A stretch of 20,489 nt of DNA. Source: Candidatus Fraserbacteria bacterium (GTDB lineage: Bacteria; Bipolaricaulota; Bipolaricaulia; RBG-16-55-9). Location: assembly GCA_037443265.1 (NCBI GenBank), contig JBBIOR010000001.1, forward strand, positions 48,940 to 69,428, in the 5' to 3' direction. Of this stretch, positions 12,001 through 18,000 are shown one piece after another (the stretch's first letter is position 1; each line of letters starts with the position of its first letter). The position numbers were made by a program.

Positions 12001-15000
12001 TGGGCGGATCACGAGCACGCAGGTCTTATTGCCCGAAGAAGACAAGCCGCTGAGAGTGATCATCGACTATGAGAATATCGGCACGACCTTCCAGCAGCCC
12101 AAAGGCGAGGTGCGCTTCATCAACTCCCGGGGAGAGGTGGTGGCGAGAGTCGAAATCCCACCCTTTCCGATCTTACCCGGGGGCCAGCGCCGGTTGGAGA
12201 TTCGGTTAGACCAGAAGCTCCCTTCTGGGGACTACGTCGCCGTGGCGATCCTCGATTTCGGAGGCGACTTTCTGCTGGGAGCTCAGACGCGCTTCAAGAT
12301 CCCTTAACTGCCATGGGATACCCCCACCCCCACCTTCGGACACAGCGCCTGCACCACACACTGTGTGCACTTGGGCTTTTTAGGCACACAGACCGCCCGC
12401 CCGTGATCCTTCATCAGCCACGGGAGACGCGGCCACTCGCTCTTTGAAATTAAAGCCATAAGATCGCGCTCGATCTTCTCCGGGTCTCTTTCTCTCGTAA
12501 GCCCCATGCGCTGACTCAGACGAATCACGTGCGTGTCCACCACAATGCCCTCGACTCTGCCAAACGCATGGCTGAGAATGGCATTGGCCGTCTTGCGCCC
12601 GATGCCCGGCAGCTTCACGAGCCCTTGCAGGGTGTCAGGCACTCGGCCGCCGTATTCTTCAACTAGAATCTTGCAAGCACTCTGAATCGCTTTGGCCTTA
12701 TTACGATAGAAATTGACGCGCTGGATGTCGCTCTCTAGCTGCTCTAGAGGCGCGTTCGCATAGTCTGAGGCCGTCTGGTATTTCCCAAACAGCTCGGCCG
12801 TCACAGCATTGACCAGCTCATCGCGCGCCTGAGCTGAGAGGATCGCCGCCACTAAAAGCTCCAGGGGATTGCTGAAGTTCAAATAATACTTGGCATGAGG
12901 ATAAGCCACCTTGAGTCTTTGCAGGATGGCAGAAGCTCTTTCTTTCTCCGTCACGCACAATCATCTCCCAAGAATATGGACACAGCCTACAGAGCCAGTC
13001 GCAAAGCGGCCAATCCCAATGTTATGCTGGAGCGCGATCTCGGCGCTTTTCACTTGGACCGGCCCGGCCTCGCCGCGCAGTTGCTCATAGAGCTCCACAA
13101 TTTGAGCCACGCCCGTGGCCCCCAACGGATGCCCTTTGGCCAATAAGCCCCCGCTGGGGTTGACGGGCCTTTCGCCCTCCAGATGAACGCGACACTCTTC
13201 TAGCAGCTTGACCCCCTCCCCGGGCCGGGCGAATCCCAAATCTTCATAGCTTATAAGCTCTGTGATACTGAAACAATCATGAATCTCCGCGACGTCAATA
13301 TCTTCAGGTCCCACGCCTGCCATCTCGTAGGCCTGATGGGCCGCCCGCTGAGTAGCCGGAAAACTCGTGAGATCCCCACCCCGCACGAAGCTGTCCATCG
13401 AGAGCCCTGAGCCCAACACATACACGGGATCGTCCGTGTAGCGCCGAGCGATCTGGGCATGGCACACAATCACGGCTGCCGCCCCGTCCGTGATGGGACA
13501 ACAATCATACAGCCCCAACGGATACGAGACATAAGGGGCTTTCAGCACGTCTTCCAGGCTGCACTCGAATCTGAGATGCGCATGGGGATAGAGCGAGCCG
13601 TTGTGATGATTCTTCACGCTCACCAGCGCGACTCCCTCGCGCGTGACCTCGTATTTGTGCATATAGGAGGTAGCTCTAAGCCCGAAGAAGGCCGGCATCG
13701 TCACCCCGCGCCCCAGCCAGAGCCTCTTTAGATCCGCTCTCTGGATGAGCCCTCCCGGCTCATCATGCATCTTCTCTGCGCCCACCACCAGCGCAACGTC
13801 ATAGACACCCGAGGCCACGGCCAGACACGCCTGACGAAAGGCATCGCTCCCCGTCGCACAGGCGTTCTCCACCCGCGTGACGGGAATATCAAACAATCCC
13901 GTGGCATGAGAGAGCACTAGGCCAGAGTTGCCCATGACGGGATAGACCGTCCCAAACCAAGCCGCTTCGATCTCCTTGGGGTCGAGCCCTTTGTCGACGC
14001 TCGCCAGCGCTTTTAAATAGGCCTGCTCGATCATGTCTTCTAAGCTGAGCGAAAAATGTTCGCCGAAGTCGATCAGGCCCGCGCCCACGACCGCCACCTT
14101 CTTGCGAAGCGCTTCGCTCATGGCCCACCCTTCCGCGGCTTAAATTTATAAGAATAGACTCTTAGCCCGCTCTCTTCTTCGTACATCACGCAGAGATCGG
14201 CCTCGACCTCCAGGCCCACTCTCACGTCTTCGGGCCTGCACTCGATGATCTCCCCATAGACCCGCGCGCCGTCTTCAAATTCCACAACCGCCATAGGCAG
14301 CGGCGTCTGAAAACCTTCGGGCAGACGATGCTGAATCACAAAAGAAATGATCTTCCCATAGGGCTTCATCTGAAACTCTTCAAATTCCACCGGAGCTTTT
14401 CCGCAGCGCTTGCAGACGCTCTTCTTCTCGGGGAAGGAGACCCACCCGCAGCTTTGGCATCTATAAGCCACAAGCTGGGCGTTCTCTTTGGCGATGCGCC
14501 AGCTGAGCGGACTCGTCATCACTCTCCTCCTAAAAGCCCTACAGAGCGCAGATACGTTGCATAGCTTATATATTCTTTCTGAGCCAGCTGTGCTTCCACG
14601 GTCGGAAGGCCTTTCGCAAGGGTGATGGGCCTCTCAACGCGCAGGGCCAGCGCGTCGCTCCCGCCCGGCCCATAGGAGATCGCCAGAATGCGCTGTCCCT
14701 CCTGCACCCTCTCCAGAGCCAGCGCTAGATCTACCAGAAAAGAAGCGCATCCGACGAAGCCTAGCTGGGGAAAAGTCGAGACGAGCTTCTTCGCCGCAAT
14801 CTGGAGCCTCTCCAGCGCGCGCGTCCCCCAACGAAACTCCGGAGGGTGCAGCACAACGCGCTCGAACTCTTCCAGTGTGGTGCCCATCACATTCCGGAGT
14901 TGCTCTCCCGCGCCCTGCACGTGCTTAAGAAAGCCCTGCTGCATCACGAAGCGCTCGTCAATAGAGCCATGAAACCTTCCCTCAGCGCGAGAACGTCCAA

Positions 15001-18000
15001 CAAAGCCGCTCGTGTACGATGCAAAACCTTCCAAACGCGCAAATCCTTCTTGGGCCAGCACAACGGCTCCGGCACCCGCTCCATAGCTCAGTTCATAAGC
15101 CGAGCCGGGCCGGGCGATCAACTTGTCGCTGGCCACAACCAGGCCGCACTCTATGCGTCCTGAGGCGATCGCATCCGCACCCGCTTGCAGAGCAGACGTG
15201 ACAGAACGTGTTGAGAGCCCAAGATCTGCCACCGTCGTATCTGGTTTGGCGCCGAGGAAGTGGGCCAGCTGGGCCGCCAAGGCGTTCTCGGCATAGCCAC
15301 TGGAGACGCTGGCAAAATAGATCGCTCCCAATTGCGGGCCACTGAGATTCGTCTGTGCGAGCGCCGCTTGGGCGGCTTTGACCCCCATGGTGAGCACATC
15401 TTCATCGGGAGCGACCACGCCCTTCTCGCCCCGGCCGCCCGAGCGCCCCCAGGCCTGATTGATCTCTTCAACTTTAATGCGATAGCGAGGCAGATAGACC
15501 CCAAAGCCTGCAATGCTTGCCATTTCACTCCAATCTGAAAATCTTGAGGGCGTTTTCGCGAAGATATCTGCGTTCCGCTTCTGCACTTAAGCGCAGAGCC
15601 CTTACTTGTTCCAGTGCTTCTCGGTGATAGAGCACAGGATAGTCTGTCCCAAAGAGCACTTTCTCCTTGCCACGAGTGTTCATAAACTGCAGGAGCGTCC
15701 CGTAGCCCGGCGTGCCCAGATATTTGGGAGCGTGAGCGCTCGTGCCAATGTAAATATGGGGATGCTTCCAGGCGAGCGCGATCAGCTCTTCGCACCACGG
15801 CCAGCCCGTATGAGCCGCGACGATCTTCAACTCGGGAAAATCCAGCGCAATATCATCGAGATAGATCGGCCGCCCGAGTTCATTGGGCATGAACTCCGCA
15901 CTGTGGCCGATCTGTATCACCACAGGCACACCGAGTTCCACGCACTTCGCGTAGAATGGATAATATCGGCGATGATTGGGAGCTATCCCGAAGCCATACG
16001 GGTGAAGATGCGCCCCCACAAAGCCCCGCTCTTCTATGAAATATTCTAGACGCTTTACGCCTTCCATGCGCTCTTTGGGATTGATCCCCACCAACCCATA
16101 GATGCGCTTGGGAAATCTCTGGGAGAGTGCGGCGATCTCCTCTTCGGGCTGATTCATTTCCAGATGGCTCCAGGGATCGCCCATCTTGAAAGCCGGTATG
16201 AGAATTCTTTCAACGCCGGCCTCGTCCAGCTCTTTGAGGAAAGTCTCTGGAGGGCGCCCTGCGCCCTCGGCTATGCGCTCCTGTCTGCCAAAAAGCTCAA
16301 AGGCATAGCGGAGCATCTTTGAATCCCGAAAGCGCTTAAGGCCTGCCTCCGTAAAGAGATTGCACCAGTAGTCGATCGCCAGAACCATCACGCGGCCATA
16401 CTACTCCGAAGCCGGTGGGCCCGACAAGCTTGAAGCACGCCGCGCCCGGCGCATACAATGGGTTGCTCATGTCTTCAAGAAAGATCCGCGTCGTCTTCTT
16501 CGACGTGCACGATACGCTCATCTACTGTCGGCTCACTCCGCCCCAGATCTTCGTGCAGCTGTTGGAGGAGGTAGGCAGGGCACTGCTGCCTTCCGCCGTG
16601 GAAGCGCTCTACCCCAAGCCACAACAGCTGGAGCAGCTGCGGGCTCAAGCCAAGGGCTGCGAAGACGAGTTCTGGCTCTCATTCAATGCCCAGCTGTTGC
16701 AGGAGCTGGGCATTGTCGATCCCAACGGGAGACTCGCCAGGCATCTGACGGAAGGCTTCAAAGACGTGCGCTGGTGGGCCGTCTACCCCGACGTGAAGCC
16801 TGCGCTACGCGATCTCAGGGGGGCAGGATATCGCTTGGGCGTGATTGCCAATGCCAGGCATCTGCTGCAGGGACGACTAGGGTATCTGGAGCTGATGGGT
16901 TATTTTCAAGCCATCACGTACTCCGAGGAGGCGGGCTTTGAGAAGCCCGACCCGCGGATCTTTCAGCTGGCCCTAGAGCGAATGAAATGCGTCCCTGAAG
17001 AGGCTCTTCACGTGGGCGATCGCTATCTCGAAGATATCCAAGGAGCCCGAGGGGCGGGGTTGCAGGCCGTTCTGCTCGATCGGAATAATTCTCAGCCGGA
17101 CGCAGAGTGCAAGCGAATCCGAAGCCTAGTGGAGCTGCGGGATCTTTTGAGCCAGATCTAGCGCGAAAGCTCCTTCGATTTCTGGGTGGCTCGATCGACG
17201 GCCTTGATGAGCGCCACGCGCACGCCTCCGGCCTCCAGCTCCAACAGGCCGTCTACGGTCGTCCCGGCGGGCGTGGTCACTGCGTCTTTCAACTTGGCCG
17301 GATGCTCACCCGTCTCCAGCACCATCTGCGCGGCCCCCAGAATCGATTGGGCAGCTAAAGTCGTCGCTAGCTCTCGGGGTAAGCCCACTTTCACCCCACC
17401 TTCGGCCAGCGCCTCAATGATGATGTAGCCGTAGGCTGGCCCGCTGCCCGACAGCCCAGTCACTCCATCCATCAGCTCCTCGTTGTCGATCACTTCCACG
17501 CGGCCCACCGATGAAAAGATCGCGCGGGCCATCTCAATATGAGCGCGTTGAGCGTATCTTCCGGGACAGAGCACCGTCATGCCCTGATTCACTAAACAAG
17601 GCGTGTTCGGCATGGCCCGCACCACCGGCACAGCTCCTGGCAGATGCTCCTCCACAAAGCGCGTGGTAACCGCCGCAGCCAGGGTGATGACCAGCTGTTT
17701 AGGCGTGATATGATCCCGAATCTCAGAGAGCACTCGAGCCATATTCTGAGGTTTGACCGCTAAAATGACGATATCTCTCTCTCGAACAAGCTGGGCATTG
17801 TCTGTAAGCACAGCCAGGCCATGGCGTTCGGCCATCTTGGCCGCTGTCTCTTTGTGCGCGGTGCTGCCCGCAACGCTCGATACAACGCGATTGCGGATCA
17901 GGCCGCTGGCGAGCGTCCCCCCGATCTTGCCCAACCCGATGATCGCTACCCGCTTGTCCTTAAGCAGGCTCATAAGATCTTGCCAAATTATACGAACTCC

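Follow-up and report, generated by a model that had tools for sequence, protein, structure and literature searches.

An unfused dead-synthase/DUF35/thiolase operon of Candidatus Fraserbacteria predicted to encode a degradative 3-oxoacyl-CoA thiolase

Analysis of 20,489 nt of the Candidatus Fraserbacteria contig JBBIOR010000001.1 (the window; its source genome, G000, is 88% complete) indicated that three adjacent genes specify a predicted degradative 3-oxoacyl-CoA thiolase seated on a dead synthase scaffold, with the architecture of the archaeal thiolase/HMGCS/DUF35 complex; we put the probability of this reading at about 0.7. The unfused complex would most likely cleave acyl-CoA intermediates formed when organic acids, possibly aromatic, are degraded. 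The system is an unfused variant of a published dead-synthase complex and no new kind of complex: the genome-wide survey's note had proposed a third kind, but the type with a dead HMGS, an intact ACAT and a DUF35 protein had already been mined, with 1,030 loci (1,001 'minimal' bacterial loci), by Liao et al. (Nat Commun 2026, PMC12960953). That paper posed the physiological role of these approximately 1,000 loci as a question. Such genes are routinely labelled 'hydroxymethylglutaryl-CoA synthase', which creates a false mevalonate signal in uncultured bacteria and archaea.

Organization of the operon

The features of the locus are as follows.

15525-16388, minus strand: Amidohydro_2 protein with a TIM barrel, 287 aa, at the head of the operon
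14519-15523, minus strand: HMG-CoA synthase homologue of archaeal type, catalytically dead, 334 aa (6esq HMGCS match, tetrad loss)
14118-14519, minus strand: DUF35 adaptor (zinc ribbon plus OB fold), 133 aa (Pfam PF01796, E 4e-12; PF12172, E 1e-4)
12961-14121, minus strand: SCP2/archaeal-type thiolase, 386 aa (6esq_A match, motifs kept)
12304-12960, minus strand: endonuclease III (nth), TIGR01083 above cut-off, abutting the thiolase stop

The first four ORFs are translationally coupled, the synthase-like start ATG at 15523 lying one base past the stop of the upstream Amidohydro_2 ORF. The nth gene, found at the same place in four of ten carrier genomes, is probably a co-transcribed passenger. 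A promoter and terminator scan of the locus gave a chance-level result. The three-gene order was previously counted as kept in 6 of 8 loci with G002 differing; it is indeed mostly kept and G002 is the exception, the genes being split there, but the count is now nine of ten carriers. The synthase-like and DUF35 proteins are encoded by separate, coupled ORFs in all ten.

The Amidohydro_2 gene adjoins the three-gene unit only in G000 and G033, and the order-wide locus comparison agreed with the survey on this point. Its earlier designation as a decarboxylase is unsupported, because the matches to LigW/ACMSD are weak (E 2e-6 to 1e-4) and the best match is an uncharacterised protein (E 1e-24). The N-terminal HxH, the metal motif of Amidohydro_2 non-oxidative decarboxylases such as ACMSD and LigW, is absent, the position reading IDYWCN. 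The protein was assigned to no NCBIfam family and the ESM Atlas returned unnamed Amidohydro_2 clusters only. It is 46% identical to a G000 paralogue heading a benzoyl-CoA reductase operon, and proteins of its type turn up repeatedly in clusters for acyl-CoA catabolism. These amidohydrolases may act as CouO-like beta-ketoacyl-CoA hydrolases, and BzdT is a candidate name for them.

Catalytic residues of the three subunits

The best PDB match of the synthase-like protein was the 6esq HMGCS (E 1.6e-49), followed by the PhlA-type 9skh_A (3.1e-31), PhlA 5m3k (1.4e-24) and MucA 9vbo (1.7e-15), and its AlphaFold model (pLDDT 90.5) was closest in fold to 6esq_I (TM 0.91). Alignment to the 6esq HMGCS placed Leu-Ser-Thr opposite the catalytic Phe-Ala-Cys, as the survey had reported, and revealed that the loss is wider than first claimed: E82, C114 and N270 of the tetrad are replaced by V73, T105 (codon 15209-15211) and F256, and only H238 is kept, as H226. 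Among the 41 closest orthologues, taken from 47 hits, the Cys column holds T33/A5/S3, with Cys in 0/41, and the His column Q26/H12/G2/A1. Of the 150 nearest representatives at 50% identity, 139 lack the Cys as well, and 64 of these 139 are unfused as judged by length. The gene has a dN/dS of 0.12-0.29 (7 computable pairs of 10), and the dead subunit is thus under purifying selection.

The synthase-like subunit is non-catalytic. A new catalytic role, with Ser104/Thr105 or Cys259 as nucleophile or with binding of a second substrate, is highly improbable: S104 occurs in 41/41 clade members and 117/138 wider dead homologues, R106 in 41/41 and C259 in 39/41 clade members, but the position of the nucleophile itself changes freely, with T, A or S among clade members and L, T, P or A beyond them; the Glu, His and Asn columns are equally variable, residue 259 may be A, S, T or C in proteins outside the clade, and PhlA, with the same losses, is non-catalytic (PMC6392133). 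Thr105 itself was ruled out as a replacement nucleophile, A or S standing there in 8/41 orthologues. Three arginines at positions proposed as CoA contacts in the archaeal complex are kept as candidates, R191 in 41/41 of the closest orthologues, R231 (R/K) in 38/41 and R235 in 40/41; R235 is kept in just 26/138 wider dead homologues, which counts against a CoA-pocket role.

HMG-CoA synthesis by an altered mechanism, as a functional entry to the mevalonate pathway, has a negligible chance of being correct. The archaeal mevalonate complex is the closest structure for all three subunits, but three of four tetrad residues are lost, and HMG-CoA formation is abolished when the archaeal complex is mutated in the tetrad (PMC12960953). 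HMG-CoA reductase (PF00368) was detected in 1/35 order genomes and not in G000 at its 88% completeness, while DXR of the MEP pathway was above cut-off in 33/35 and IspG is present in G000. The survey's statements that the reductase is missing and that this is not a mevalonate pathway therefore stand.

The thiolase retains its Cys and has 6esq_A as best match (E 7.4e-71), as reported before, with PhlC far behind (E 1.5e-25). Cys88 (codon 13858-13860), HDCF at 281-284 and GHP at 330-332 are present, together with a clade-specific four-residue loop insertion carrying Arg372. Among the 120 homologues listed, C88, H331 and R372 were found in 120 each, and H281 and R138 in 119 each. Judged by these motifs, the subunit has the full SCP2-type catalytic set. 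Its model reached pLDDT 87, it is 75-87% conserved, and the closest thiolases are haloarchaeal and Asgard proteins (61-67% identity). The DUF35 protein matched 6esq_E (E 8e-19), and its C21, C24, C36 and C39 are invariant in 19/19 aligned sequences. Complex prediction for the thiolase, DUF35 and dead synthase scored 0.56, and a control without the thiolase 0.70; these scores were counted neither in favour of binding nor against it.

By analogy with the family, Cys88 would attack the 3-oxo carbon of a 3-oxoacyl-CoA with assistance from His281 and His331, acetyl-CoA or another short acyl-CoA would leave, and the acyl group would pass to CoA. The DUF35 protein would bridge the thiolase and the dead synthase, the latter serving as a structural subunit that may contribute half of a shared CoA pocket (candidates R191/R231/R235) and hold the thiolase in its active shape. 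Because no exergonic synthase step draws the reaction forward, it would run towards cleavage.

Distribution, phylogeny and genome context

An intact synthase-like orthologue was found in 10 of 35 order genomes, and a thiolase orthologue of at least 75% occurs in the same ten, consistent with a degradative complex; both genes are kept in G002 despite the split, and both are broken in G009, where a deleted remnant of the synthase-like gene remains.

In a quick tree of 70 rows, with groups named after the first tree and the PhlA-like label checked for two of four rows, AU tests rejected the grouping of the clade of the window protein with active HMGCS (p 0.019) and with the PhlA-like rows (p 0.029), and the latter branched beside active HMGCS, apart from that clade. 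The window system is neither an archaeal HMGCS complex nor a PhlABC, as the survey had it. A recent independent loss of the Cys from archaeal HMGCS was rejected, since the nearest relatives are all dead and the grouping with active HMGCS failed. A single clade of PhlA-like and proteobacterial fused proteins was not rejected (AU p 0.085), and the published trajectory is therefore questioned, not refuted. The clade is an unfused lineage common to bacteria of the order and haloarchaea, with its own thiolase loop.

The tree also bears on a Friedel-Crafts C-acyltransferase resembling PhlABC/MucABC, in which the thiolase subunit would use acetyl-CoA to acetylate an activated aromatic or enolic acceptor, or would deacetylate it; the amidohydrolase-fold enzyme encoded upstream might supply that acceptor. 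The same three-subunit set with a dead synthase and the co-occurring aromatic-CoA genes favour it. This is nevertheless very unlikely, given the rejected PhlA-like grouping, a thiolase nearer to 6esq than to PhlC, an HDxF retained in 119/120 homologues listed and absent from PhlC and MucB (PMC12960953), and a type III PKS (PF00195) not above cut-off in G000. No type III PKS or NRPS-PKS neighbours were seen at ten loci, NRPS having been looked for at the loci only. The label 'acyltransferase-like' in the PhlABC sense consequently has to be dropped.

Elsewhere, the neighbourhoods of relatives point to catabolism, with beta-oxidation clusters among them. In 4/4 haloarchaeal loci that share the gene order (thiolase 63%), culturable carriers included, genes for acyl-CoA dehydrogenases, hydratases or CoA ligases are nearby; fused dead-synthase loci were in catabolic clusters in 5/5 viewed, hand-picked from 55 records; and in 2/7 metagenome loci where a complete unfused dead synthase lies upstream, the gene immediately ahead of the unit belongs to the 3-hydroxyacyl-CoA dehydrogenase family. 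In genomes of the order the unit is flanked by variable housekeeping genes (nth, proC, HAD) and not by beta-oxidation genes, which counts against the degradative reading.

BzdO occurs in 5/10 carriers and 0/25 non-carriers, and the PaaA/C family in 8/10 and 3/25. Genes for benzoyl-CoA reductase (BzdO) and/or of PaaA/C type are thus in 10/10 carriers versus 3/25 others, a post hoc comparison of kin that are not independent; the single control family, COX1, is in 9/10 versus 17/25. The phenylacetate pathway as such is weakly supported: a PaaK-type ligase domain was found in 3/35 order genomes and not in G000, no NCBIfam model matched the PaaA/C-family proteins at E 1e-40, and the paa-type loci are limited to a module of A, a DUF59-like protein and C. 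A search for the Oah ring hydrolase, in which no positive control matched, gave 0/35 order genomes, and no benzoate-CoA ligase reached cut-off in five genomes; like the PaaK and NCBIfam results, these count against the degradative reading. An IOR-alpha search of five genomes was not discriminating.

We regard as unlikely a general acetoacetyl-CoA or short-chain thiolase, redundant with canonical ones or biosynthetic if pulled by a reductase, the aromatic link reflecting shared gene loss in streamlined lineages. Acetoacetyl-CoA thiolysis is the sole assayed activity of the type and may be mere residual activity according to the authors (PMC12960953, peer-review file), which counts against the degradative reading; a self-contained operon amid housekeeping genes and the conservation of the thiolase also fit a general enzyme. 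Canonical thiolases are, however, present in 35/35 order genomes (three in G000), which also excludes mutual exclusion with the unit, while the unit is absent from 25/35, its losses track aromatic-CoA genes and not COX1, and the invariance of the Arg372 loop suggests that the substrate is a specific one.

For the degradative thiolase the substrate is probably special, because the genome already has three ordinary thiolases. The leading guess, somewhat short of even odds within the degradative reading, is that degradation of aromatic rings supplies the substrate, either a 3-oxo-dicarboxylyl-CoA or an aryl-3-oxoacyl-CoA, with a distal carboxylate that Arg372/Arg138 may bind. Catabolic neighbourhoods and aromatic-CoA co-occurrence thus yield a short, testable substrate list. 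We tentatively, and with low confidence, propose that dead-synthase/DUF35/thiolase complexes form an old cross-domain class of catabolic thiolases, the dead synthase giving half the CoA site, and are not unrecruited intermediates towards PhlABC, PhlA having lost its tetrad separately. The unfused Arg372-loop clade (Bipolaricaulota-related bacteria and haloarchaea; for the thiolase also Asgard) would then be the 3-oxo-dicarboxylyl-CoA thiolase of aromatic-CoA degradation, equivalent to PaaJ or 3-oxopimelyl-CoA thiolase, with the HxH-less amidohydrolase as companion C-C or thioester hydrolase.

Comparison with known systems

The synthase-like and DUF35 subunits match the archaeal complex (6esq) best in both sequence and fold, and the thiolase matches it best in sequence; the thiolase Cys, HDxF and GHx, the four DUF35 zinc Cys and the candidate basic residues of the CoA site are shared. 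Unlike the archaeal mevalonate complex, the window system has the tetrad V-T-H-F, no reductase found and an MEP pathway, and substrate channelling is not possible in it. PhlABC (PpATase, 5M3K) and MucABC (SmaATase, 9VBO) likewise consist of three subunits, of which the HMGS-like one is non-catalytic and the thiolase carries a catalytic Cys, but they lack HDxF and have PKS/NRPS genes alongside.

The fused P. fluorescens ACAT/HMGS-DUF35 complex cleaves acetoacetyl-CoA in a manner that depends on the HDxF His, and it forms no HMG-CoA (PMC12960953). The window system resembles this type in the lost HMGS tetrad E-C-H-N (though H226 is kept), the retained ACAT Cys, HDxF and GHx, the DUF35 partner, the co-located genes and the lack of nearby PKS/NRPS. 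It differs from the assayed complex in its unfused HMGS-like and DUF35 proteins, a fusion that the published mining did not require, in the four-residue Arg loop absent from fused types, and in a synthase-like subunit on another branch than fused proteobacterial proteins, the stand-ins for the P. fluorescens protein.

One viewed fused dead-synthase locus matches the estradiol-degradation edc cluster. In the edc cluster of Novosphingobium tardaugens (PMC7793797) a catabolic operon pairs a thiolase with an atypical 'HMG-CoA synthase' that puzzled the authors, and in the edc-like cluster of Novosphingobium ES2-1 a dead HMGS is fused to DUF35. The edc type differs from the window in being fused (as seen in ES2-1), in a thiolase approximately 43% identical and in a steroid context absent here. 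Rhodococcus aedG is a 3-hydroxyacyl-CoA dehydrogenase and not an HMG-CoA synthase homologue (PMC8913865). The benzoylsuccinyl-CoA thiolase BbsAB (7PXP) and the SCP2-type thiolases lack a synthase-like subunit, and the window thiolase, with a score of 221, stays below the BbsB cut-off of 750; BbsAB and the window system both pair an HDxF thiolase with a DUF35 partner, and the catabolic cleavage of an unusual 3-oxoacyl-CoA by BbsAB is the role predicted for the window thiolase.

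Operon layout and catalytic residues

The coupled open reading frames of the window operon, which overlap at stop and start or are separated by a 1-base gap, are the following.

15525-16388, minus strand, Amidohydro_2 protein
14519-15523, minus strand, HMG-CoA-synthase-like protein of 334 aa
14118-14519, minus strand, DUF35 zinc-ribbon/OB protein
12961-14121, minus strand, SCP2/archaeal-type thiolase
after the thiolase, minus strand, endonuclease III, last gene of the coupled run

Records of Ca. Fraserbacteria and Ca. Bipolaricaulota/Acetothermia are the closest named relatives, and the host lineage probably belongs with them.

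Analysis of the synthase-like protein indicated that its top sequence match is the archaeal HMG-CoA synthase (HMGCS) of the thiolase/HMGCS/DUF35 complex 6esq (E 1.6e-49) and that its top fold match is also archaeal HMGCS (TM 0.91). Alignment with 6esq placed V73, T105 and F256 at the positions of the catalytic residues E82, C114 and N270, and of the E-C-H-N tetrad the His alone is retained. Glu, Cys and Asn occupied the catalytic columns in none of the 41 closest orthologues (of 47 matches) and His in 12 of them; the Cys column varies between T, A and S and thus offers no conserved replacement for the nucleophile. The thiolase Cys88 and His331 (of GHP) were present in all 120 listed homologues, and His281 (of HDCF) in 119. 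The feature was borne out, and the synthase is dead: its lack of the catalytic Cys and the retention of the thiolase Cys, both proposed in the genome-wide survey's note, were confirmed. That note had also reported no HMG-CoA reductase and set aside a mevalonate pathway, and both statements held. Three of the four tetrad residues are lost, a search of the 35 genomes of the order found the reductase in one of them and none in the source genome G000 (88% complete), and DXR was above cut-off in 33/35, with IspG present in G000. The window unit is not a mevalonate entry point.

Elsewhere in the window, positions 56-1521, continuing upstream (locus L228), code for a xanthine-dehydrogenase-family molybdoenzyme with a Cys-rich insertion in its FAD subunit, of which the top NCBIfam match is 4-hydroxybenzoyl-CoA reductase beta, far under cut-off; in genome G032 an enzyme of this type adjoins the nth-thiolase operon. 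The two genes at 1787-2399, a small gene followed by one that we take to be PemK/MazF-like, are 99% identical in G033 while the neighbour genes show 76-87%, and for this reason would be a recently moved toxin-antitoxin-like pair. Positions 9008-12307 and 5411-8894 hold a secreted-looking gene cluster without known families, convergent with a 912-aa repeat protein. The cluster includes a pair of short proteins that have signal peptides and resemble each other, a protein of 320 aa and one of 276 aa without Pfam match; it is only our impression that it resembles a surface-filament assembly locus.

Retention and ancestry of the dead synthase

An intact dead synthase was found in 10 of the 35 order genomes (the carriers), the same ten that have a thiolase orthologue at 75% or above, and a phylum-wide search of 184 genomes gave no further strong match. 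The three-gene order is intact in nine carriers; G002 retains both thiolase and dead synthase, on separate contigs. In G009 a single deletion took out most of all three genes; the remnant (L039, G009:C20:27965-28665) has the start of the dead synthase fused into thiolase pieces and DUF35 is lost, in a 95%-complete genome. The dN/dS values were 0.12-0.29 for the dead synthase (7 of 10 pairs computable) and 0.04-0.11 for the thiolase.

Residues R203, K243 and K247 of the archaeal complex, proposed as contacts of the shared CoA (PMC12960953), align with R191, R231 and R235 of the window synthase, and these positions are R or K in 41, 38 and 40 of the 41 closest orthologues, respectively. Among 138 wider dead homologues the R191 position is R or K in 108 and the R231 position in 104, while the R235 position is R in just 26. 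From the retention, the dN/dS values and the candidate CoA-contact arginines we infer that the dead synthase is probably a structural subunit completing the CoA pocket.

The next relatives of the thiolase are haloarchaeal and Asgard proteins (61-67%), and on four haloarchaeal plasmids the three genes are likewise unfused and arranged as in the window, the synthase tetrad being absent. Orthologues of the three genes occur in Natrinema and Halomarina. In thiolases of this unfused lineage (the clade), HNIG is followed by a clade-specific insertion of four residues that carries Arg372 (120/120 listed homologues); Arg138 is present in 119/120. Fused-type thiolases are without this insertion. A quick IQ-TREE tree was built under a simple model from 70 rows, of which 60 were drawn from 166 domains and 10 came from loci; the actual PhlA, MucA and P. 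fluorescens sequences lie outside this set. The clade grouped with haloarchaeal dead synthases (SH-aLRT 91), and the PhlA-like rows, a label checked for two of the four, adjoined active HMGCS on another branch. With groups named after a first tree, two constraints on the clade were rejected, one uniting it with the PhlA-like rows (p 0.029), the other uniting it with active HMGCS (p 0.019); constraining the PhlA-like rows together with two proteobacterial fusions was not (p 0.085).

Five longer HMGCS-like proteins (P0107, P0131, P0144, P0159, P0078) have an additional N-terminal part, identified by phmmer as DUF35 in P0131, P0144 and P0159. Three of the five keep the full tetrad, and Cys is absent in P0131 (active branch) and P0078 (outside it); they are further independent fusions and losses. 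Another dead-synthase branch (loci L083, L084, L088, L091; proteins P0076, P0117, P0140) has Glu in place of the nucleophile. Here the thiolase/dead-synthase/DUF35 unit adjoins lipid-A-acyltransferase-like genes in L083 and L088, and in L088 an SCP2 gene too, hinting at a lipid role.

Gene neighbourhoods and candidate substrates

The operon flanks within the order (nth, proC, HAD) differ between genomes and are uninformative on function, but the gene neighbourhoods of relatives favour a catabolic role. All four haloarchaeal orthologue loci have acyl-CoA dehydrogenases, hydratases or CoA ligases nearby. Five hand-picked fused loci, four from 55 records and one from another search, are without exception part of beta-oxidation-type clusters, and ring dioxygenases accompany two of them. 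Among the 10 closest of 80 metagenome loci, seven carry a whole dead synthase upstream, in two cases directly after a 3-hydroxyacyl-CoA dehydrogenase-family gene. One of the fused loci is similar to the estradiol-degradation edc cluster, whose HMG-CoA synthase homologue was judged senseless in a degradative pathway by Ibero et al. (PMC7793797). The window unit is probably a degradative thiolase, to which we give roughly seven chances in ten. Three canonical thiolases and a second archaeal-type pair are also encoded in G000, which makes it likely that the window unit acts on a special substrate. The second unit (L187, G000:C3:81464-84826), with PRK06066-like and PRK06065 thiolase-domain genes and two DUF35 genes, was found in most genomes of the order.

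The upstream gene (Amidohydro_2, E 7e-37) had been called a decarboxylase, a name that could not be upheld: decarboxylases match it at just E 2e-6 to 1e-4, and among solved structures the closest relative is an uncharacterised protein. Two of the 10 carriers have an orthologue of this gene, in both cases next to the unit, and a paralogue (43-47%), the first gene of a benzoyl-CoA reductase operon, occurs in 6/10 carriers versus 0/25 other genomes. The five plasmid relatives viewed, of nine, are each surrounded by genes for acyl-CoA dehydrogenases, ligases or hydratases, two of them lying about 3 kb from a thiolase and a dead HMGS-DUF35 fusion. The protein looks like a recurrent acyl-CoA-pathway enzyme.

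G000 has subunits N, O and Q of a bzd-type benzoyl-CoA reductase above cut-off and a PaaA/C-family pair. BzdO was found in 5/10 carriers versus 0/25 others and PaaA/C in 8/10 versus 3/25; one or both occur in 10/10 versus 3/25 (one of the three being G009, with the remnant), a union drawn after the data were seen and among kin genomes that are not independent. The control COX1 was present in 9/10 versus 17/25. Benzoyl-CoA-reductase and Paa-type pathways both finish with thiolysis of 3-oxo-dicarboxylyl-CoAs, substrates that would fit the invariant arginines of the thiolase clade. No benzoate-CoA ligase was above cut-off in the five genomes searched, no NCBIfam model matched the PaaA/C proteins at 1e-40, Oah was not found among the order genomes (search without positive control), and a PaaK domain occurred in 3/35 of these genomes, G000 not included. 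The aromatic-catabolism assignment of the window complex is a testable lead.

The bzd-type operon of G000 (L186, G000:C6:3108-10810), with BzdN, O and Q over NCBIfam cut-offs, further holds a regulator, an HxH-less amidohydrolase, a dienoyl-CoA-hydratase-like gene, a BzdV-like oxidoreductase and an SDR. It is also found in G032, G033, G001 and G017, with a related cluster in G002 (L216-L222); no Oah match was obtained in L186 and its kin, which may have an unconventional ring-opening step. Bipolaricaulota and benzoyl-CoA reductase are named together in three papers. The PaaA-like/DUF59-like/PaaC-like di-iron module stands alone in G000 (L225, G000:C34:5724-8037) and 10 other order genomes, with no other paa genes nearby and mostly no PaaK; G009 has just one PaaA/C match. 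The two genomes with PaaA/C but without any trace of the window complex (G020:C63 and G022:C31, L223 and L224) carry SCP2-type thiolases of 524-530 aa with a C-terminal extension without Pfam match. A conserved cluster of branched-chain-type ABC transporter, IOR-alpha-like, SDR and CoA ligase genes (L232, G000:C10:53300-63400; L233, G033:C10) may serve to take up and activate organic or aryl acids.

Comparison with published complexes

A survey of the best 150 of 1,654 representatives at 50% identity revealed a large dead family: Cys is absent in 139 (75 of at least 440 aa and 64 shorter), and Glu and Cys are both kept in 11. The window DUF35 was matched by 74 of 78 proteins of 440-540 aa. A literature search, mostly of open-access papers, found no publication on this thiolase/dead-synthase clade or its substrate.

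According to Liao et al. 2026 (PMC12960953), 1,030 bacterial HMGS/ACAT/DUF35 loci were mined, and secondary-metabolism genes were absent from 1,001 of these. The P. fluorescens pair assayed there consists of a fused HMGS-DUF35 without E-C-H-N and an ACAT with Cys, HDxF and GHx. Cleavage of acetoacetyl-CoA by this pair depended on the HDxF His, and no HMG-CoA was made, while PhlC and MucB, which are without HDxF, did not cleave acetoacetyl-CoA. The motif pattern of the window is identical, with the synthase tetrad lost and the thiolase Cys, HDxF and GHx kept, so that the "third kind" of complex put forward in the survey's note had already been published. HMGS and DUF35 are fused in P. fluorescens but are separate genes in the window, whose unit is a variant of this described complex type that is unfused and linked to archaea.
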